From Burkholderiales bacterium (GTDB taxonomy: Bacteria; Pseudomonadota; Gammaproteobacteria; Burkholderiales; SG8-39), in assembly GCA_035499735.1 (NCBI GenBank), contig DATJYC010000043.1:15182-79181 (forward strand): a DNA stretch of 64,000 bases, written 5' to 3'. Of the stretch, positions 13,805 through 22,096 are shown in pieces. The notes below the pieces were generated by a model. It searched no databases, had not been told where the DNA came from, and worked only from the letters and a program-made list of their open reading frames with translations. Position 1 is the first letter of the stretch; each line of letters opens with the position of its first letter. Made by a program: the position numbers and the translations under genes.

Positions 13805-15949
13805 TCAGAAATCCCAGCGGTATCCCGCGGAAAAGAAGTAACGATGTGTAACCTCCTGGAGGAAGGCGCTGCTCGTGTTCGTGTTCTCGATGCCGGCCTC
13901 GAGCTCCAGGGTGATGCTGTTGCGCCAGCGCCAGCTCGCGCGGCCCACCGGCGAGACGCGCTGGAGGGTGCTGCCGTCGTCGTTCTTCTGCCCGTACCAG
14001 AGCACCGCGCCGTCGAAGGTCCAGCTCGCGCCCACGGGGAAGCGGCTCGTGAGCTGGCCCGCCAGCCCGTGGTACGTGTCCGCGGTCACGCCGCTCACCG
14101 AGACGACGGTGACGTCGCGCGTCGCGAACACGCCCGTGCCGATCGCCTGGCTGGTGAGCGTCTTGATGTAGCCGCTGCCGGGCGTCGCGGGATAGTTGGG
14201 AGTTGCGTTCGTGTGGGAAATGCGCGTCACCTGGGCATTGAGGCCGAGCTGCCAGACGGAGGTCACCGGGTGCGTAAAGCCTCCGTATGCGATCGCCGAT
14301 TGCGCAGTCACATCCCGAGCCTGCTGACGCAGCTCGTCTTCGGTATAGATCGTGAGCAACTGGCGGATCGACGTCGTGGGCGCGCCGATGATCGCGCTCG
14401 TGGTCTGCAGCGACGGGGTCATGCGGTAGTCGAGCAGCATATTGAACGAGGTCTTCCACGGCGCGATCCAGTTCCCCTGCGCGGTCGCGATGTTGAGGTG
14501 GCGGAACAGCGTGTCGTAGTCGACCACCGACGAGAAGTACCCCTGAGGCGTGAAGTAGCGCGCCTCCGCGCCGACCGCGTCGCGGTCGGCGATGCCGTCC
14601 ACGGTCTGGCGGAACACGTAGACGTTCCCGCTCCAGCGCTGGTTGAAGGGCCCCAGCTCGGCGCTCGCCCCGTAGAAGCGCTGCACCGAATCGATGGTGA
14701 AGCCCGGCACGACCGGCTCGCCGGCGGCCAGGTTGAGCCGCGCGCTTGAGGTGAAGCCGTACCCGAGCAGAGCGCCGTCGAAGCGGCCGGGGAGGCCCGC
14801 GCTGTTGCCGGGCTGCCGTCCCAGGCGCGCGGAGGCGCTGGCGGGCTTGTACTTGTAGTCGTAGTAGGCCTGGTCCAGGCGGTTGATGCTTTCCTGTCCG
14901 GCGATGAAGTTCCGCGTGTTGACGTCCCGGAACACGATGCGGTTTTCGTGCGCGTCGTTCATAAAGCGCGCATTGAGATCGGCGCTGGTGATGAGCGCCG
15001 ACTGGTCGACGACCGAGAGCGTGGTCCGGTCGAGGGCGTTGGGCCCGAGCGGCTGGGAGTCGATCTTGCTGTTCCCGTGATAGTAGAACTGCGACAGGCC
15101 TCCGCTGACGAACGAGCGCCAGCCCTGCTGGGGCTCGGTGGGCGGGCGCAGGACCTCCGCCTGCGGCGCGGCGGCGAGGCTCGCAAGCCGCTGGCGCACG
15201 CGCACCGAGTCCTCGCCTTCCGGATATTTCTTCAGGTAGTTCTCGTACTCGGTCCTCGCGCGGGCGGTGTCTCCGCGGCGCTCGTAGGAAAGAGCGAGAA
15301 ACTCCTGCGCGTCGCGCGTCAAGGCGTTCTGGGGCAGCGCGAGCAGCTGCGTGAACGCGCGGATCGCAGCGGCGTAGTCCTCGCGCACGATCGCGCCGCG
15401 GCCATCGGCCATCAGCGCCTCGGGTGAGCCGGCGGGCGCGGGAGCCGCGGGCGGGGCGGCCGGCTGCGATGGCTCGGCCTGAGCCGACGGAGCGGGCGCC
15501 GGAGGCGTCGCCGCGGGCGCCGGAACCGCCGCGGGGGGCGCCGCCGGGCGCGGAAGCAACGCCGCCGCGGGCGGAGCGTCGGCCTTGGCCCGCGAAGTCT
15601 TCTCGAGGTTGTCGCGCTCCTGCGGGTGGACCTGGACGACGCGCGCCTCGCGAAAGCTCGCGGCGAGCTGCCGCCTCGCGCTCTCGGCGTCCCGCTGCGT
15701 GCCGAAGAAGCCCATGCACAGCTGGTAGCTCACGTTGCTTCCCGACCTCAGCACCCGCCAGTAGAGCGTGTTCCTGCGCAACGAGGCCGGGATCGGAGTG
15801 CTCGGGCGGTCCGCGACGTTCTTCACCGTCGCCAGCGCGACCACGTAGAGATCGGGCGCCGGAGCTTGGGCGCGGGCTTCCTGCGCAAGCAACGCGAGCG
15901 CGGCCAGCGCGGCGACCGCCAGGCCTCCCCTTAGGCCGGTTCTTGTCAT
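13805..15949 (-). CDS. Outer-membrane beta-barrel with N-terminal SPOR-like domain, Pro/Ala linker and TPRs (putative porin of a porin-cytochrome conduit)
   Basis: Signal peptide; SPOR-like YQLCMGFFGTQRDAESARRQL; TPRs (REDYAAAIRAF, YENYLKKYPEG); about 450 aa of amphipathic strands ending AGYRWDF. ATGA-coupled to the upstream gene. Confidence 0.8.
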   Translation of the reverse strand: MTRTGLRGGLAVAALAALALLAQEARAQAPAPDLYVVALATVKNVADRPSTPIPASLRRNTLYWRVLRSGSNVSYQLCMGFFGTQRDAESARRQLAASFREARVVQVHPQERDNLEKTSRAKADAPPAAALLPRPAAPPAAVPAPAATPPAPAPSAQAEPSQPAAPPAAPAPAGSPEALMADGRGAIVREDYAAAIRAFTQLLALPQNALTRDAQEFLALSYERRGDTARARTEYENYLKKYPEGEDSVRVRQRLASLAAAPQAEVLRPPTEPQQGWRSFVSGGLSQFYYHGNSKIDSQPLGPNALDRTTLSVVDQSALITSADLNARFMNDAHENRIVFRDVNTRNFIAGQESINRLDQAYYDYKYKPASASARLGRQPGNSAGLPGRFDGALLGYGFTSSARLNLAAGEPVVPGFTIDSVQRFYGASAELGPFNQRWSGNVYVFRQTVDGIADRDAVGAEARYFTPQGYFSSVVDYDTLFRHLNIATAQGNWIAPWKTSFNMLLDYRMTPSLQTTSAIIGAPTTSIRQLLTIYTEDELRQQARDVTAQSAIAYGGFTHPVTSVWQLGLNAQVTRISHTNATPNYPATPGSGYIKTLTSQAIGTGVFATRDVTVVSVSGVTADTYHGLAGQLTSRFPVGASWTFDGAVLWYGQKNDDGSTLQRVSPVGRASWRWRNSITLELEAGIENTNTSSAFLQEVTHRYFFSAGYRWDF

Positions 15950-16413
15950 TCTTTGTTGTCGGTGCTCGGGGTGCGCTTGTTTTCGTCGGGTGCAATCGGG
16001 AAATCGAGCAGCAGGCTGCGGCGGTCTTCGCCGAGGCGCACGTGGCTGCGGACCGGGCGCTCGTACTGGATCAGGATGCAGACCGGGTTCGGCACGGGCT
16101 CGCACCTCGGGTCGAGGGAGACCCTCACCGTGAAAGGAGGAATGGCGCCGTCTCCCCGGAAATACTTCACCTCGTCGGGAAACGGCGGCTCGCCCGGCAA
16201 AAGCGGGGCGAGCGCCTCGAGCTGCACGTTCACCAGCTCGCCGTTCTTCGACGCGTAGTCGCGGATGTAATGGACAGGGCCGGTGAGCCGCACCCTGACT
16301 CGCGGCACCGCGTCGCCTCTCTCAACGGCGATCTCGTCGATGACCGCGGCGAGCACGGGCGGAGAGGCCAGCGCCGCCCAAGCCAGAAGCGCTACGCATG
16401 AGATGCAACGCAT
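15946..16413 (-). CDS. Small secreted accessory protein, possibly AMIN-like
   Basis: Signal peptide, beta-rich IDEIAVERG...VRVRLTGPVHY...RSLLLDF, one Cys pair. Lies within the cytochrome-porin operon. Confidence 0.62.
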   Translation of the reverse strand: MRCISCVALLAWAALASPPVLAAVIDEIAVERGDAVPRVRVRLTGPVHYIRDYASKNGELVNVQLEALAPLLPGEPPFPDEVKYFRGDGAIPPFTVRVSLDPRCEPVPNPVCILIQYERPVRSHVRLGEDRRSLLLDFPIAPDENKRTPSTDNKE

Positions 16414-16420
16414 GCGGCTT

Positions 16421-17248
16421 TCAGCTCGTCCAGCGCGTGTAGGTGGAGCCCTGATTGCCCAGCGGCCTGTGGCAGCCCGAGAACGAGCAGTCGGGTCCGG
16501 TGCCGTCATGGTTGAGCGTGTTCTTCTGCATGCTTCCCAGATAAGGCGAGTTCCTCAAATGGCATGTGCTGCACTGGCCAGAGCCGTTCCCGAGACTGCT
16601 GTTGTGGTTCATCCGCTCCGCGGTGAAGGTCGTCGTGCTGGTGTGGCAGGCGTCGCAGCCCAGGCTCGCACCGTTGAGCAGCGCGGTCTTGTAGGGAATG
16701 TGGTTGGAGGGCATGGCGAGGCCAGGTCCCCCAGGGGTGTGACAGGTCTCGCAGCTTCCCGCAGCGACACCGTTGTGGTTGAACCCGGCCGGCACCCACG
16801 CCGCTGTGCGATGGCAGCTGTCGCAGGACGCAGTAGTTACCAAGTGGTTCGCCGGCTTCCCGGGCGCGAAGAAGCCGGTGTGGCAGGTCGTGCACGTCCC
16901 CGGCGCGACTGTCGCGTGGTTGTAGCGCGCGCCCTGCCAGGTGGCCGCGGAGCGGTGGCAGTTGTTGCAGGCCTCGTTCGTCTGCACGTGATTGGCGGGC
17001 TTGAAGGTCGTGGCGATGCGGCTGCCCGGGCGGTGGCAGTACTCGCACTGCCTGGGCGTGCCCGCCATCTGTCCGCCGACGTGGCAGTTCTCGCAGGGCG
17101 TGACTGCGTGCACGCCGGTGAGCGGGAACGTCGTGCGCAAGTGGTCGAAGGTGCTGCGGCCGCCCTGCGCGAACGCTGCGCCCGCGTTCAGCAGCACGGC
17201 GCCGAAAGCGATCAAGCGCGCCAGCCGAATGCCGTGTCCGGAGTCCAT
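16421..17248 (-). CDS. Multiheme c-type cytochrome (8 CxxCH plus 1 CX4CH)
   Basis: CENCH, CEYCH, CNNCH, CTTCH, CDSCH, CETCH, CDACH, CSTCH and CSFSGCH; signal peptide. Confidence 0.92.
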   Translation of the reverse strand: MDSGHGIRLARLIAFGAVLLNAGAAFAQGGRSTFDHLRTTFPLTGVHAVTPCENCHVGGQMAGTPRQCEYCHRPGSRIATTFKPANHVQTNEACNNCHRSAATWQGARYNHATVAPGTCTTCHTGFFAPGKPANHLVTTASCDSCHRTAAWVPAGFNHNGVAAGSCETCHTPGGPGLAMPSNHIPYKTALLNGASLGCDACHTSTTTFTAERMNHNSSLGNGSGQCSTCHLRNSPYLGSMQKNTLNHDGTGPDCSFSGCHRPLGNQGSTYTRWTS

Positions 17249-17261
17249 GTTGTTTCTCCCC

Positions 17262-18848
17262 TCACTGGAACAGACGCCCTGCGCCTCCCGACTTGATGGT
17301 CTTGAACGTGCTCGTGACGTGGCAGCGCTCGCAGACGGGCCCGAAGCCGCCGTTGTGGATGTCCTGCTCCGCGTGGCAGTCCGCGCAGGTGCTGGCGAGT
17401 TTGAGCTTCCCCTGCACCGGGAACCGGTGGCAGGCCAGGCAGTCCAGCCCGCGGTGCTTCCCGTCGAGGACGAAAGCGGTGCGCTTGTTGTGGTCGAAAT
17501 CCCACTGCTTCCAGCTGCGCGGGTTGTGGCATTGCTCGCACGCCATCCCGAGCTTCAGCTTGTGCTTGTCGTCCTTGCGGTGGCACGAGTAGCAGTCGGT
17601 CTTGGCGTCCTTGAACTGCGGCGTCGTGTGGCAGTCCTTGCAGGCGACCTTGGCGTGCCGGCCGAGCAGCGGGAAGCGCGTGAGTCCGTGATCGATGCGG
17701 CTCTGCTTCCAGCTCGCATCGTTGTGGCACGACTCGCACTGGGCTCCGAGCTGCCCGTTGTGCTTGTCGTCCTTCCTGTGGCACGCGATGCAGGCCGTCG
17801 CGAGCTTCTCCCTGTAGACGAATCCCTTGTGGCAGCTGACACAGGTAATCTGCGCGTGCTTGCCGCGCAGCGGATAGCGCGTGACCAGGCCGTGGTCGAA
17901 GATCGTGGCCTTCCAGTCTCTCTCGACGTGGCAGCTGTCGCACTTGTCTCCGAAGCGACCCTGATGCCCCTTCTTGTCGTCGTCCTTCTTGTGACAGGCG
18001 ACGCACGTCGTGGGCGTCTTCTCCTTGTAGAGCATGCCGGTGTGGCAGGCGTCGCAGCGGACGAACTGGTGCCTGCCCTTCAGCTCGAACTTCGTATCGC
18101 GTGCATGGCTGAACCGGGTCGTCTTCCACGCCATGTCGGTGTGGCAGGTCTCGCACTTGGCGCCGAACCTGCCGCGATGCCCCTTCTTGTCGTCGTCCTT
18201 CTGGTGGCAGGAGACGCAGGCGAGCGGAGTTCCCTTGAAGTCCTGCGTCTTGTGGCAGGACTCGCAGGCGACATCCGAGTGGGCGTTCCGCAGCGGGAAC
18301 TTCGTCTTGCTGTGGTCGAAGCGCGTCTGCTTCCACGAGATCTCGGTGTGGCAGTTGACGCACTCTGGGCCGAGCTTGCCCTTGTGCTTGTCGTCCTTCT
18401 TGTGGCACGCGTTGCAATCGTGCGCTGTGTTGCGGTACTTGACCGTCGGCACGTGGCAGGAGGCGCACTCGACCTTGGTCGAGGCGTGGGCGCCCTTGAG
18501 CAGGAAGTCGGTCTGCTTGTGGTCGAAGGTCCTGGAGTTCACGGGAGCGATGTTCGCCTTTCGCCCCTTGTGGTCGGTGTGGCAGGCGCGGCAGTCCCGG
18601 TCGGGCATGCGTCCGTGGTAGCGCCGGTGCTGCGCGACGTCGGCGGCGATCTCCTTGTGGCAGTCGAGACACTGCGTGCGCTGCCCGGCCCGGTTGAAGC
18701 GCACGTGGCAGTTCTTGCACTCGCTCTCCCACTTGGCGTGCCCCTCGATGACCTGGCCCGGCATGACCGCAGTCTCCAGGCTCTGCGCGAAAGCGCCCGG
18801 GACGAGCAGCAGGAGGAGCCATCCGGTGACCTTCGCTCGTCTCGACAT
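17262..18848 (-). CDS. 21-heme periplasmic c-type cytochrome
   Basis: I counted 21 CxxCH motifs. Signal peptide MSRRAKVTGWLLLLLVPGAFA. Start placed at ATG 18848. Confidence 0.95.
   Translation of the reverse strand: MSRRAKVTGWLLLLLVPGAFAQSLETAVMPGQVIEGHAKWESECKNCHVRFNRAGQRTQCLDCHKEIAADVAQHRRYHGRMPDRDCRACHTDHKGRKANIAPVNSRTFDHKQTDFLLKGAHASTKVECASCHVPTVKYRNTAHDCNACHKKDDKHKGKLGPECVNCHTEISWKQTRFDHSKTKFPLRNAHSDVACESCHKTQDFKGTPLACVSCHQKDDDKKGHRGRFGAKCETCHTDMAWKTTRFSHARDTKFELKGRHQFVRCDACHTGMLYKEKTPTTCVACHKKDDDKKGHQGRFGDKCDSCHVERDWKATIFDHGLVTRYPLRGKHAQITCVSCHKGFVYREKLATACIACHRKDDKHNGQLGAQCESCHNDASWKQSRIDHGLTRFPLLGRHAKVACKDCHTTPQFKDAKTDCYSCHRKDDKHKLKLGMACEQCHNPRSWKQWDFDHNKRTAFVLDGKHRGLDCLACHRFPVQGKLKLASTCADCHAEQDIHNGGFGPVCERCHVTSTFKTIKSGGAGRLFQ
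17319..18527 (-). repeat. Six intragenic tandem tri-heme repeats of about 70 aa
   Basis: Each unit reads (F/I)(D/S)H-x-T-x-F-x-L-x-G-x-H...CxxCH...CxxCH...DD-x-H...CxxCH...W (one unit has N for G; the last lacks DD and W). DNA such as cccttcttgtcgtcgtccttct recurs near 17968 and 18181. Confidence 0.88.
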
Positions 18849-18853
18849 GAGCC

Positions 18854-19843
18854 TCAATACATGTGCACGTAGACCACATGGACGATCGCGCTGAATACCA
18901 GCATGAAGACGAAAGGAACGTGCAGGACGTGCCACAGGGAGAACAGGCGCTCGTAGGTGCGGAACTGGGCGACTTCCTTCAGCTCGCGCATGTAGCCCTT
19001 CAGGATCCGCCGCGCGACGCGGATGCGATGGCTGCGCTCGCCGCGAGGCCAGTTGCGCTCGCTGGCGGCGCGCGACAGGATCCGGCCGACGTCCCGCATG
19101 CTGCGCCAGTAGACGTAGCGGGTGCGCACCGTGAGCGCGAGAAACCGCCGCACGCCGAGCAGACCGAGACGGGTCTGGTCGGCGGCGTACGCTTCCAGGT
19201 CCTTGAGGCGCTGCTCCACGCTGGGCGCAAAGTGGAATTTCGACTTTAGCGACTCGCCCTGCAGGCCCAGGTGCTCCTGGCGCTCTCGCAGCGTGGCCTG
19301 GCGGCCGTAGAGGCCGTGGTGGATCTTGGTGTAGATGAAGCGCCCGATGATTCCGCTGCCCGCGACGATCAGCATGCTGTAGAAGGCGACGGCGGCGTTG
19401 AGCGAGCCGATCCTGAGCGTGGAGTGGTACAGGATCAGGACCGGCCCGGCGATCCCGAGGAACATGTGCACCTTGAACCAGTGCCGGAGCTCCCCGGCCC
19501 GCTGAAGGAAGCGCACGCGCTTGCGCAGGGGATACAGGAGCAGCAGCAGCATGAAGATCGAGCCGACGAGGCCGAGGTTGTAGCCGAGATCGGAGCCGGG
19601 GGTATACAGCTCGGCGCGGCCGGCAAGCCAGGCGCCCGCGGCGAGAACGATCGCCACGAGCCAGATCGCCGTGACCGGCAGGGGGCGGGCGTCCCCGCGA
19701 CGCTCCGACCCCGCGTGCGGGCGCGGGCCCGCCGACCGGCGCTCGACATCGTATGCGGGACTCACCGGGGACGACACAGGTCTGCTCGGACGATTGGTCG
19801 ACGCGGAAGGAGTGCCATTGTCATCTGGACGGCGCACGGCCAT
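18854..19843 (-). CDS. Inner-membrane His-rich protein, cytochrome b/ferric-reductase-like transmembrane module
   Basis: Hydrophobic helices with His residues: WFKVHMFLG...LYHST and WHVLHVPF...IVHVVYVH. First gene of the cytochrome operon. The true start is uncertain and may be downstream of 19843. Confidence 0.78.
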   Translation of the reverse strand: MAVRRPDDNGTPSASTNRPSRPVSSPVSPAYDVERRSAGPRPHAGSERRGDARPLPVTAIWLVAIVLAAGAWLAGRAELYTPGSDLGYNLGLVGSIFMLLLLLYPLRKRVRFLQRAGELRHWFKVHMFLGIAGPVLILYHSTLRIGSLNAAVAFYSMLIVAGSGIIGRFIYTKIHHGLYGRQATLRERQEHLGLQGESLKSKFHFAPSVEQRLKDLEAYAADQTRLGLLGVRRFLALTVRTRYVYWRSMRDVGRILSRAASERNWPRGERSHRIRVARRILKGYMRELKEVAQFRTYERLFSLWHVLHVPFVFMLVFSAIVHVVYVHMY

Positions 19844-20008
19844 CCATGAAAATCTTCCACCATGCCCAGAAGAATCGACGCAGTCGTGAAAAACTGCCGC
19901 GCCTCCCGTTGCCTCCAGAACGCGGGCGTAGGATACGATATATTCAAGCGGGTGTCGGTGATTTTCTCTGTCTCCGATTCACGACACACAGACGTTTCTC
20001 ATTCTCAC

Positions 20009-21316
20009 GTGCTAGCAGGCGCAAACCTCACCACGCTGCTCTTATACGGGCTGCCCTTCCTTGCGGTGCTCGCCTGGTACGTCGTGCGCCAGCGCCGCCG
20101 CGACCGCGAGGGCAGCGAGCGCCTCCAGCAGGCGATCGAGGAGGGGCTCAACGAGCCCGCGTCGCTGCACCCTGTCATCGATCCGCGCAAGTGCCTCAAC
20201 TCCAGGGCGTGCGTCGCGGCCTGCCCGGAGGACGCCATCGGCATCGTCAACGGCAAGGCGCAGCTGGTGAATGCCGCGGCGTGCATCGGCCACGGGGCCT
20301 GCATGGCCTCGTGCCCGCACGACGCGATCACCCTGGTATTCGGCACCGAGAAGCGCGGCATGGACATCCCCCTGGTCAAGCCGAACTTCGAGACCAACGT
20401 GCCCGGCCTGTTCATCGCCGGGGAGCTCGGCGGGATGGGGCTCATACGCAAGGCGGTCGAGCAGGGCCGGCAGGCGATGGAATCGATCGCGAAGCTGAAG
20501 GGCAGCGGCCTGCCGCACGACGTCGTGATCGTCGGCGCCGGCCCGGCCGGCATCTCGGCCTCGCTCGCCGCGAAGGAAAGGAACCTCAAGTTCGTGACGG
20601 TCGAGCAGGAGAGCTCGTTCGGCGGCACCGTCTATCACTACCCGCGCAACAAGGTCGTCATGACCGCGCCGGTGCAGTTGCCGATCATCGGCAAGATGAA
20701 CTTCGGGGAGGTGAGCAAGGAGAAGCTCCTCGAGTTCTGGAACGGCGTCGTCAGGCGCACGGGCATCAAGATCAATTTCTTCGAGCGCATGGAGACGCTG
20801 AAGCCGGACCGCAACGGTTTCGTCCTCAGGACCTCGAAGCAGGAGTACCGCACGCGCGCGGTCCTGCTGACCATAGGCCGCCGCGGCACGCCCCGCAAGC
20901 TCGGCGTGAAGGGCGAGGAACGGCCCAACGTGGTCTACCGCCTGATCGACCCCGAGCAGTACCGCGGCCAGCACGTGCTCGTCGTCGGCGGGGGCGACTC
21001 CGCGCTCGAGGCGGCGCTCGCCTGCGCCGACGAGGCCGGCACGAGGGTCACGCTCTCCTACCGCAGCGAGGCGTTCTCGCGCGTGAAGCAGAAGAACCGC
21101 GAGGCCGTGCAGCGCGCCGAGAGCGCCCGCAGGCTGAAGGTCGTTCTTTCCTCGAACGTCGAGCAGATCGGCGAGGGCAGCGTCACCCTCGACCAGGGCG
21201 GCAGGAAGATCGAGCTGAAGAACGACGCGGTGATCGTATGCGCGGGCGGCATCCTGCCGACCCCCTTCCTCAAGGAGATCGGCGTGCAGGTCGACACCAA
21301 GTACGGCACGGCCTAG
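20009..21316 (+). CDS. Membrane-anchored 2x[Fe-S] ferredoxin fused to a TrxR/FNR-like FAD/NADPH oxidoreductase
   Basis: N-terminal TM followed by RQRRR; CLNSRACVAACP and CIGHGACMASCP; VGAGPAG (FAD); VGGGDSA...YRSEAFSR (NADPH type). GTG 20009 is the chosen start; the ORF is open from 19862. Confidence 0.85.
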   Translation: MLAGANLTTLLLYGLPFLAVLAWYVVRQRRRDREGSERLQQAIEEGLNEPASLHPVIDPRKCLNSRACVAACPEDAIGIVNGKAQLVNAAACIGHGACMASCPHDAITLVFGTEKRGMDIPLVKPNFETNVPGLFIAGELGGMGLIRKAVEQGRQAMESIAKLKGSGLPHDVVIVGAGPAGISASLAAKERNLKFVTVEQESSFGGTVYHYPRNKVVMTAPVQLPIIGKMNFGEVSKEKLLEFWNGVVRRTGIKINFFERMETLKPDRNGFVLRTSKQEYRTRAVLLTIGRRGTPRKLGVKGEERPNVVYRLIDPEQYRGQHVLVVGGGDSALEAALACADEAGTRVTLSYRSEAFSRVKQKNREAVQRAESARRLKVVLSSNVEQIGEGSVTLDQGGRKIELKNDAVIVCAGGILPTPFLKEIGVQVDTKYGTA

Positions 21317-22096
21317 CTACACCGCGGCGCGCTTCGAAATTCCCCCGTCGATGGTGACGATGGTGCCGCTCGTATAGGAGGACAGGTCGGAGGCGAGGAA
21401 CACCACGCTCGCGGCGATCTCGTCGACGGTCGCCGGGCGCCCGAAGGGATTCTTCTTCAGCAGCTCAGCGTAGCGCTCCTCGTCGCCGAGGATCGCCTTC
21501 GCGCGCTTTTTCGAGATCTTCATGACGCGGTCGGTGGCCACCGGCCCCGGGTTGACCGCCAGCACGCGAACGCCGTATTCGGGGCTCGCCGCGCCCAGCG
21601 CGAGAGTCATCGACATCAGGCTGGCGTTGCCCATCGAGCCCGCGACGTACGCCGGGATAGGACGTTCGCCCGCGGCGCCGATGATGTTGACGATGACGCC
21701 GCGTTTCCTCGCCTTCATTTTTGCGAGGTAATGGCGAGTGAGCGCGACGTAGCCGAACACCTTCAGGTCCCAGCCCGCGCGCCAGGCCGCGTCGTCGACC
21801 TCCTCGATCGGCCCCGCCGGAATGTCGCCCGCGTTGTTGATCAGTATGTCGACCTCGGGGCAGGCCTCGATCAGCTTCCCGCGACCCGCGTCCTGCGACA
21901 GGTCTAGCGCTAACGTCCGAACCTCGACCCTCGCGCTCTTCCTGATTTCGGCCGCTTCGCGCTCGAGCAGGTCCTTCGACCGCGCCGCGAGGCGCAGCGC
22001 GCAGCCCTCGCGCGCGAACCACTGCGCGATTCCGAGCCCGATGCCCTTCGACGCGCCCGTGACGAGCACCGTGCGTCCCGCGAGCTTGAGGTCCAT
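21317..22096 (-). CDS. Short-chain dehydrogenase/reductase
   Basis: VTGASKGIG, INNAG, YVAGSMGN, VNPGPVAT and IDGG. Confidence 0.9.
   Translation of the reverse strand: MDLKLAGRTVLVTGASKGIGLGIAQWFAREGCALRLAARSKDLLEREAAEIRKSARVEVRTLALDLSQDAGRGKLIEACPEVDILINNAGDIPAGPIEEVDDAAWRAGWDLKVFGYVALTRHYLAKMKARKRGVIVNIIGAAGERPIPAYVAGSMGNASLMSMTLALGAASPEYGVRVLAVNPGPVATDRVMKISKKRAKAILGDEERYAELLKKNPFGRPATVDEIAASVVFLASDLSSYTSGTIVTIDGGISKRAAV

Follow-up and report, generated by a model that had tools for sequence, protein, structure and literature searches.

A circularly permuted flavoprotein with two atypical ferredoxin motifs is the constant partner of the PCC3 inner-membrane protein and probably its electron-input subunit

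Introduction

The 64,000-nucleotide stretch of Burkholderiales DNA studied here (contig DATJYC010000043.1 of assembly GCA_035499735.1, positions 15,182 to 79,181; referred to below as the window, with all positions counted from its first letter) contains at 20009..21316 a gene for a putative flavoprotein that lies head-to-head with an operon of the PCC3 type, a widespread heme conduit that is predicted to span the cell envelope and that the literature ties to the quinone pool and to Fe(II) oxidation. The question raised by this locus is what a flavoprotein with the parts of a thioredoxin reductase (TrxR), arranged in another order and joined to two atypical ferredoxin motifs, is doing next to such a conduit. 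We report that it is the constant, obligate partner of the PCC3 inner-membrane protein (IMP), that its circular permutation is a family-wide trait, and that it is probably the cytoplasmic electron-input subunit of the conduit. The publications on PCC3 that were consulted (PMC5566968, PMC10734462, PMC8788666) do not mention the flavoprotein, and a literature search, which was not exhaustive, for a permuted TrxR or YpdA and for a flavoprotein associated with PCC3, with the neighbours of Slit_0867-0870 or with NADPH oxidase (NOX)-like extracellular electron transfer returned no description of the protein.

Results and Discussion

Gene and chain layout

The gene and the elements of its product, with amino acid (aa) positions, are as follows.

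20009..21316, + strand: gene for the 435-aa predicted membrane-anchored iron-sulfur (Fe-S) flavoprotein, with a GTG start at 20009 and the stop at 21314-21316
20027..20086, + strand: N-terminal transmembrane (TM) helix, aa 7-26, LTTLLLYGLPFLAVLAWYVV, then RQRRRDRE (hydropathy peak 1.8; helix aa 2-44 in the AlphaFold2 (AF2) model)
20162..20344, + strand: two-cluster ferredoxin-like domain, aa 52-112 (Pfam Fer4_10)
20192..20227, + strand: cluster motif 1, CLNSRACVAACP, aa 62-73, C62-LN-S65-RA-C68-VAA-C72-P73, with Ser at the second Cys position
20282..20317, + strand: cluster motif 2, CIGHGACMASCP, aa 92-103, C92-IG-H95-GA-C98-MAS-C102-P103, with His at the second Cys position
20348..20509, + strand: displaced GD-type FAD strand and helix, aa 114-167, with a short linker into the Rossmann strand (profile and BLASTP matches)
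20522..20551, + strand: FAD Rossmann motif VVIVGAGPAG, aa 172-181 (alignment to Bdr 7a7b)
20981..21016, + strand: NAD(P)H Rossmann motif VVGGGDSALEAA, aa 325-336 (sequence alignment)
21242..21313, + strand: C-terminal chain end, aa 412-435, corresponding to Bdr residue 272 of 328 (same end point in nearly all relatives)

As read from its sequence, the chain runs from the predicted N-terminal TM helix through the two-cluster ferredoxin domain and the displaced GD-type FAD segment into a YpdA/TrxR-like FAD/NAD(P)H core. The stretch ETNVPGLFIAGELGG starts at nucleotide 20390 (aa 128), the segment FETNVPGLFIAGELGGMGLIRKAVEQGRQAMESI spans aa 126-159, and the C-terminus reads ...VIVCAGGILPTPFLKEIGVQVDTKYGTA* (also written ...CAGGILPTPFLKEIGVQVDTKYGTA), with 21313 as the last coding nucleotide. 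The motif positions of the original prediction (20390, about 20525, the chain end and both Cys motifs) were all correct on re-check.

GTG 20009 was chosen as the start because the close homologs, which cover 100% of the query, are nearly all 435 aa long. An alternative ATG start at 19862, which would give 484 aa, was dropped, since the divergent gene would then be only 18 bp away and the homologs have 435 aa. The gene is present in a single copy in the host genome. The AF2 model reached a pLDDT of 91.9 and a pTM of 0.84, a high confidence that indicates only a compact, fixed arrangement of the protein.

The flavoprotein is circularly permuted

It had been predicted that the flavoprotein is circularly permuted with respect to flavoproteins of the TrxR, YpdA and ferredoxin-NADP+ reductase (FNR) type, with the GD-type segment that normally ends these proteins placed ahead of the FAD domain. 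Four independent tests bear this out and extend it to the whole family. In profile and sequence alignments, the flavoprotein core stops exactly where the GD-type segment normally follows: Pfam Pyr_redox_3 was matched up to profile position 282 of 305 and Pyr_redox_2 up to 253 of 291, the best sequence match in the PDB, Bdr/YpdA 7a7b, covered residues 6-272 of 328 only, and the best model, the NCBIfam YpdA profile TIGR04018, was matched over positions 1-264 of 316 only. The alignment therefore contains no conventional C-terminal GD segment, and the GD-type segment is found on the N-terminal side. HMMER also reported an extra weak stretch that places aa 124-141 on Bdr 277-294.

An in-silico chain of conventional order (aa 168-435 followed by aa 114-167) was compared with the core alone and with the core followed by a shuffled tail. 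The re-ordered chain matched the YpdA profile over positions 1-310 of 316 with 170.1 bits, against 153.7 bits for the core alone and 153.9 with the shuffled tail, and the TrxR profile over 1-297 of 300 with 86.3 bits, against 74.0 and 73.4, respectively. The gain over the core alone was thus 16.4 bits (YpdA) and 12.3 bits (TrxR), whereas the shuffled tail gained nothing.

A search with the displaced segment as a single sequence gave only weak matches (E = 0.1-1), and a profile built from 39 family members was used instead to search the PDB. Two-dinucleotide-binding flavoproteins made up 56 of its 57 matches (best E = 5.6e-4), and all matches sit at the place of the GD strand and helix, behind the NAD(P)H domain, for example at 305-351 of 481 in dihydrolipoamide dehydrogenase, 405-448 of 456 in GltD and 299-341 of 343 in TrxR. 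When the protein was compared by BLASTP with a natural, non-permuted relative (L082, described below), aa 170-426 aligned with 145-406 (E = 8e-35) and aa 120-158 with 416-454 (E = 2e-7); the two segments are in swapped order, which is the signature of a permutation. The AF2 model places a strand (aa 134-136) and a helix (aa 146-161; pLDDT 81-96) just before the first Rossmann strand (aa 170-175), and the G138-E139 pair of this segment is invariant in the family, with Glu replacing the usual Asp of the GD motif. Foldseek with the whole model aligns only about 265-280 sequential columns and is blind to the permuted segment.

At 90% identity more than 8000 clusters keep the permuted order, and at 50% identity 868 clusters do so (E <= 1e-30). 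Nearly all genomic relatives have their chain end about 109 aa past the NAD(P) glycine motif. A gene fusion, a frameshift or an assembly artefact is ruled out by the thousands of homologs with the same order. A simple permutation of the cNMP/Fer4 relative as a whole was also considered and not adopted, since the two domain orders are not interconvertible by a single cut. Through the permutation, the chain starts, and carries its ferredoxin, at the hinge that links the FAD domain to the NAD(P)H domain, and these two domains are joined by one crossover instead of two. According to the original prediction, the permuted order may allow the ferredoxin to dock beside the FAD.

A PCC3 operon lies head-to-head with the flavoprotein gene

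The divergent operon and the region that separates it from the flavoprotein gene comprise the following features.

19844..20008, no strand: divergent intergenic region of 165 bp, shared with the conduit operon (gene boundaries)
18854..19843, - strand: PCC3 IMP, 329 aa, five TM helices, two W-x3-H-x13-H motifs and SGxxGR (alignment, AF2 model)
17262..18848, - strand: multiheme cytochrome, predicted to be periplasmic, with 21 CxxCH (motif count)
16421..17248, - strand: second multiheme cytochrome, with 8 CxxCH and 1 Cx4CH (motif count)
13805..16105, - strand: porin-like protein, predicted to lie in the outer membrane, 766 aa, with a TPR region and the end ...GYRWDF (syntenic in proteobacterial relatives)

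The operon reads, on the minus strand, IMP, 21-CxxCH cytochrome, second cytochrome, a small protein predicted to be secreted and the porin-like protein. The IMP of PCC3 has been defined as a protein of about 300 aa with five TM helices, two WX3HX13H motifs and SGXXG, its His pairs being likened to the motif of ferric-reductase/NOX domains, and the cluster as IMP, a periplasmic multiheme cytochrome (21-27 hemes), a second multiheme cytochrome and a porin (He et al. 2017, PMC5566968). Both the features of the IMP and the grouping of cytochromes and porin in one cluster are found in the window. The IMP carries W122-x3-H126-x13-H140, W304-x3-H308-x13-H322 and S163-G-x-x-G167; H126, H140, H308, H322, W304, S163, G164, G167 and R168 are identical in all of the 31 sequences compared, and W122 is almost invariant. 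Its AF2 model (pLDDT 83) has five long hydrophobic helices. Between TM4 and TM5 there is a helical insert of about 90 aa (aa 175-265; pLDDT 82-98), which a topology argument would place in the cytoplasm and which is a candidate docking platform for the ferredoxin domain.

Some details of the locus can be added. The 21-heme cytochrome likely starts at MSRRAKV..., which resembles a signal peptide, 6 nt past the IMP stop (18848-18856); the mechanically listed reading frame of 557 aa overlaps the IMP gene by 82 nt and is probably too long. A promoter scan of 19844..20008 found no match to the sigma-70 consensus, which is uninformative. On its other side, the flavoprotein gene meets a convergent short-chain dehydrogenase (SDR) gene (21317-22096, - strand) stop-to-stop at 21314-21319 with zero spacer; a promoter and terminator scan found no terminator-like hairpin between them, and the SDR gene is not syntenic in relatives.

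The flavoprotein is the constant partner of the IMP

An IMP homolog was found within about 10 kb at 69 of the 80 flavoprotein loci fetched from many phyla (Pseudomonadota, Bacteroidota, Ignavibacteriota, Myxococcota, Acidobacteriota, Gemmatimonadota, Planctomycetota and others), and the large cytochrome is also present at most of them. The same pairing was observed among 151 high-quality genomes of the order to which the window belongs: nine encode a full-length flavoprotein, and in 9/9 the IMP gene lies 200-400 bp away and divergent, while none of the 142 genomes without a full-length flavoprotein gave a strong IMP match. The flavoprotein is thus a constant, obligate partner of the PCC3 IMP; this pairing, the main clue to its function, had not been part of the original prediction.

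The two proteins also occur as a single chain. Flavoprotein-IMP fusions of about 750 aa were found in five cases (P0137, L048, L075, L076 and L079), and the reverse order, IMP-flavoprotein, in one (P0136). In a further protein of 831 aa (P0230), a cytochrome c3/c7-like domain with seven CxxCH stands N-terminal to the membrane helix and the flavoprotein. The fusions are mutually consistent and point to one topology, with the N-terminus of the flavoprotein outside and its bulk in the cytoplasm, and with the IMP N-terminus inside and its C-terminus outside. The topology predicted for the window protein is the same, and it agrees in particular with P0230 (multiheme-TM-ferredoxin-flavoprotein) and P0136 (five-TM IMP-TM-ferredoxin-flavoprotein).

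The family comprises thousands of sequences from at least 10 phyla. Cultivated isolates of Ideonella and Undibacterium are among the carriers, and Sideroxydans lithotrophicus ES-1 and Leptothrix cholodnii SP-6 have been published as carriers of PCC3. No family-level match for it was found in Pfam or NCBIfam, and its members are labelled in the databases only as 'NAD(P)-binding domain-containing protein' or 'thioredoxin reductase'. Some variants were noted in passing. P0230 has Asp for His in motif 2 (CMGDTVC), as in Pyrococcus furiosus ferredoxin. Many family members, represented by P0133, P0134 and P0138-P0152 (about 1000-1377 aa), continue past the usual chain end with an Ala/Leu-rich C-terminal extension of 550-950 aa that has weak TPR matches only. 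One IMP homolog beside a flavoprotein (G079:C1:696564-697445) contains one in-frame TGA, which could be a sequencing error, a pseudogene or recoding.

The core resembles a ferredoxin-NADP+ reductase without redox-active cysteines

The top Foldseek matches of the flavoprotein model were Bdr/YpdA and then the TrxR-type FNRs 2zbw, 3ab1 and 3lzw. No CxxC occurs in the flavoprotein sequence outside the ferredoxin motifs, the only Cys residues outside the ferredoxin domain are C339 and C411, neither of them conserved, and Ala180 (GAGPAG) occupies, in the alignment to Bdr 7a7b, the position of Cys14 of Firmicute YpdA (GGGPCG in S. aureus). These features argue against disulfide-reductase chemistry and for an FNR-like conversion of hydride into single electrons. 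The protein combines the TrxR fold with the FAD and NAD(P)H glycine motifs and has no redox Cys, as TrxR-type FNRs do, but it lacks their flavin-covering C-terminal extension, the chain ending at the equivalent of Bdr residue 272. Judging from sequence and model, it probably works like a TrxR-type FNR fused to its own ferredoxin. The strand after the NAD(P) motif ends in ...TLSYR, with R352 nearly invariant, and the same is seen in the NADPH-using Bdr. Because of this resemblance, the flavoprotein probably prefers NADPH.

It might be argued that the protein is an ordinary stand-alone reductase, of the thiol-disulfide or bacillithiol type or for ferredoxin, that merely lies beside the conduit genes, given that YpdA is its best profile match and that some relatives carry the label 'thioredoxin reductase' in their database records. 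However, the YpdA profile TIGR04018 gave only 161.4 bits with the native chain and 170.1 with the re-ordered one, against a curated cutoff of 339.9, and TIGR01292 (low-Mr thioredoxin reductase) gave 79 bits against 343. Neither the CxxC nor the Cys14 that such chemistry uses is present, the protein is predicted to be anchored in the membrane and has Fe-S motifs, and its co-occurrence with the IMP is perfect in the sampled order, with fusions to the IMP in both orders. We therefore hold this explanation to be very improbable.

The ferredoxin domain has two three-cysteine sites

The ferredoxin domain scored 41.5 bits with Fer4_10 (cutoff 25.5) and 37.9 bits with Fer4_7 (cutoff 27), and its sequence matches in the PDB were the ferredoxin modules of MvhB, RnfB and HdrA. 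The replacement of the second Cys that had been noticed in both motifs was confirmed, the motifs being CxxSxxCxxxCP and CxxHxxCxxxCP. The flavoprotein thus does not contain the two full CxxCxxCxxxCP motifs (eight Cys) of 2x[4Fe-4S] ferredoxins, and in each motif it keeps the other three Cys and the Pro, as in the CXX?XXC(X)nCP ferredoxins with [3Fe-4S] clusters. Both motifs were readable at 77 of the 80 species-level loci. The second position of motif 2 is His in all 77, and that of motif 1 is Cys in 41, Ser in 24, Thr in 10 and Ala in 2. In a wider scan of 271 family proteins, the motif 2 position was never Cys where both motifs occur, being mostly His and occasionally D, V, I, Y, A, T or F. 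On a maximum-likelihood tree the motif 1 position changed at least four times between Cys and non-Cys and at least nine times among all states; in the clade of the window protein (n = 10) it is always Ser or Ala. Only six Cys are invariant in the family (C62, C68, C72, C92, C98 and C102).

Proteins of the CXX?XXC(X)nCP ferredoxin type, with ? standing for H, S, T, N, Y or F, have all been isolated in the [3Fe-4S] form, both aerobically and anaerobically; the potential is more positive for the His forms (-31 mV for the protein from M. tuberculosis) and lower for the Ser form (PMC6237146). The His does not coordinate the cluster in crystallised Fdx and FdxE of M. tuberculosis, and in FdxE it faces the redox partner (10.1101/2022.11.02.514812). 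The original prediction had offered two possibilities, namely Ser and His as ligands or [3Fe-4S] clusters, in either case with shifted potentials. The first does not agree with the six invariant Cys, with the exchange of Ser for Thr, Ala or Cys, or with the published His and Ser ferredoxins, which are [3Fe-4S] with the His unligated; the second has these published precedents on its side. By sequence conservation and analogy, Ser65 and His95 are probably not ligands, and the window protein, with its two three-Cys sites, most likely contains two [3Fe-4S] clusters, which we favour over Ser/His ligation because the CxxHxxC ferredoxins of known structure contain [3Fe-4S] and leave the His unligated. 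One [4Fe-4S] and one [3Fe-4S] cluster would be expected in relatives whose motif 1 is canonical.

A point against this assignment is that His95 is strictly conserved in the core family, which could also mean a His-ligated [4Fe-4S] cluster, as in hydrogenases. A related alternative, in line with the ligands named in the original prediction, is that both sites are [4Fe-4S] clusters whose fourth ligands are Ser-O and His-N. The invariant His95 is flanked by Gly (G94-H95-G96) and would be free to reach the iron. A few family members have Asp at the motif 2 position, and Asp is a ligand in Pyrococcus furiosus ferredoxin. His-ligated [4Fe-4S] clusters do exist in hydrogenases (cited in PMC6237146), but the CXX(H/S/T/Y/N/F)XXC(X)nCP ferredoxins examined were all [3Fe-4S] under aerobic and anaerobic conditions (PMC6237146), the solved structures show the His pointing away from the cluster (10.1101/2022.11.02.514812), and the family tolerates residues that cannot ligate iron (Ala, Ile and Val in motif 1; Val, Ile, Phe and Ala in motif 2 of distant members). 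We consider [4Fe-4S] clusters in both sites unlikely.

Proposed electron path and its direction

We consider it probable that the gene product serves the PCC3 heme conduit as its cytoplasmic electron-input subunit, with electrons flowing outward from NAD(P)H through FAD, Fe-S and heme b to the multiheme cytochromes. In this proposal the single N-terminal helix would hold the flavoprotein at the inner membrane and leave most of it in the cytoplasm, and the YpdA/TrxR-fold module without redox-active Cys would bind FAD and accept the hydride of NAD(P)H, probably NADPH. Electrons would leave the FAD singly through the two clusters to the heme b on the cytoplasmic side of the IMP, while His95 would tune the second cluster or face the partner. 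The second heme of the IMP would receive the electrons across the membrane and hand them to the 21-heme cytochrome and the outer-membrane conduit, so that the whole system would amount to a split, NADPH-oxidase-like transmembrane electron exporter.

A bolder version can be put forward more tentatively, at slightly less than an even chance: NAD(P)H, FAD, two [3Fe-4S] clusters, two b hemes and about 30 c hemes may form a continuous wire from the cytoplasm to the cell surface, with the flavoprotein as its cytoplasmic end. Such a wire would be a bacterial analogue of NADPH oxidase made from another flavoprotein fold; it would bypass the quinone pool and, in many phyla, discharge electrons outside the cell or exchange them there, and the permutation would be the adaptation by which the cluster pair comes to lie between the flavin and the membrane hemes.

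Several observations weigh against the proposed role. An IMP was absent from 11 of the 80 loci, most of which are cut by contig ends, and two loci, L006 (Methylococcaceae) and L044 (a metagenome-assembled genome of Porticoccaceae), show neither an IMP nor a multiheme cytochrome match within flanks of several kb; these may be orphan copies or have a partner encoded elsewhere. The fold search with the IMP (Foldseek, PDB) returned no significant match (best E = 0.5; cytochrome b561 at a probability of 0.23), and in Pfam the IMP gave no match to PF01794 (FRD) and only a faint one to DUF4405 (E = 0.044). Because neither comparison identifies the fold, it is from the His motifs that we infer the binding of two b hemes. 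Many carriers are sulfur or iron lithotrophs, in which electron uptake is the assumed role, and the literature search found no experimental study of any member of the flavoprotein family.

This last group of carriers raises the alternative that the same complex works in the opposite direction, taking electrons from an extracellular donor through the conduit to reduce NAD(P)+ and so supplying lithoautotrophs with reducing power. TrxR-type FNRs are reversible enzymes, and the flavoprotein has relatives in symbionts that oxidise sulfur and in other lithotrophs (Thiodiazotropha, Sedimenticola, Endoriftia and Thiogranum). By textbook values, energetics speak for outward flow, since transfer from NAD(P)H (about -320 mV) is downhill, whereas inward transfer to NAD(P)+ is uphill in potential and against the membrane potential; from donors at the level of Fe(II) it would have to climb about 0.3 V or more, with no evident coupling site. 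The window host, moreover, resembles an organoheterotroph, with many genes for Bug-type (tripartite tricarboxylate) transporters and for acyl-CoA metabolism. PCC3 was first found in Fe(II) oxidisers (PMC5566968, PMC10734462), but in Sideroxydans ES-1 it is down-regulated on Fe(II) (PMC8788666), which fits a role other than Fe(II) oxidation, and the high potentials typical of His-type [3Fe-4S] clusters (PMC6237146) would be unfavourable for the reduction of FAD. Reverse flow is on these grounds improbable, and outward flow from NAD(P)H is the reading we retain.

Implications

Because an NAD(P)H flavoprotein dedicated to it is always adjacent and in some cases fused, a different electron source is to be expected for PCC3, and probably also a different direction of electron flow. 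The part comprising aa 46-435 is predicted to be soluble and easily expressed, and would give a handle for PCC3 biochemistry. The family is also a natural, family-wide case of circular permutation in the thioredoxin-reductase fold that can be compared with a non-permuted sister family. Our literature search found no earlier case of two CXX(S/H)XXC sites in one reductase-fused ferredoxin domain, and the family could be useful for studies on the tuning of [3Fe-4S] potentials.

Comparison with known systems

The nearest flavoproteins to the core, both in sequence and in structure, are YpdA/Bdr (7A7B, 7APR, 7A76; TIGR04018), with which the window protein shares GxGxxG, GxGxxA and the ...YR strand end as well as the absence of CxxC. 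The last 50 or so residues of these proteins, that is, the GD strand and helix, are C-terminal, whereas they precede the core in the window protein, which differs also in having Ala for Cys14, Glu for the Asp of GD, and an added membrane helix and two-cluster ferredoxin domain. The carriers of the flavoprotein are not known as bacillithiol producers. TrxR-type FNRs (B. subtilis YumC 3LZW, C. tepidum 3AB1, T. thermophilus 2ZBW and B. cereus FNR1/2) have the same two-dinucleotide-binding fold without redox Cys, and the window protein would, like them, probably pass the hydride of NAD(P)H to FAD and single electrons to Fe-S. They are soluble, linear in order and provided with a flavin-stacking C-terminal subdomain, and their ferredoxin is separate; the window protein is permuted, lacks that subdomain and has its ferredoxin fused.

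The non-permuted sister family, represented by L082:2605-5430 (+ strand, from the same order as the window host), combines a YpdA-like core with two cNMP-binding domains and a C-terminal Fer4_11, a four-cluster domain. Its core is 32% identical to that of the window protein and is matched by Pyr_redox_2 over 2-291 of 291. Both families share the unusual segment signature ES/TNVxGLYIxG(E/A)LGGxxLIK, but in the sister family the segment is in the conventional order (GD-like G-A-L-G-G) and the Fe-S domain is C-terminal, behind the two cNMP domains, the presence of which suggests a regulated electron input. Besides L082, it was found in six more genomes of the order, in open reading frames of 800-1150 aa. 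The L082 gene adjoins a gene for a cytochrome c554-like multiheme protein and has a weak IMP-like match about 10 kb away; a possible identity for genes of this type is the 'redox gene' of PCC4-type clusters.

For the ferredoxin domain, the closest parallels are the [3Fe-4S] ferredoxins of P450 systems (M. tuberculosis Fdx/FdxE, M. marinum Fdx1-11 and R. palustris HaPuxC 4ID8), which have the substitution at the same position and in the same C-I/V-G-H-G-x-C context. They are small, soluble proteins with a single cluster, whereas the window protein has two sites in one ferredoxin fold fused to a reductase.

The window operon has all the defining parts of PCC3 (PMC5566968; Gallionellaceae pangenome, PMC10734462). 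In that literature PCC3 is a cluster of four parts in which the IMP is proposed to be a quinone-active cytochrome b, whereas the pairing seen in the window points to NAD(P)H.

The proposed logic is that of NADPH oxidase and ferric reductase and of E. coli Fre-MsrQ, in which a cytoplasmic NAD(P)H flavoenzyme feeds two b hemes. In those proteins the b hemes are stacked and held by His pairs on two helices, and they carry electrons across the membrane. The window dehydrogenase differs in having the TrxR fold and not the plant-FNR fold and in the two Fe-S sites interposed, and the IMP has five helices. The acceptor would also differ, being a multiheme cytochrome in the system proposed here and O2, Fe(III) chelates or MsrP in those systems.

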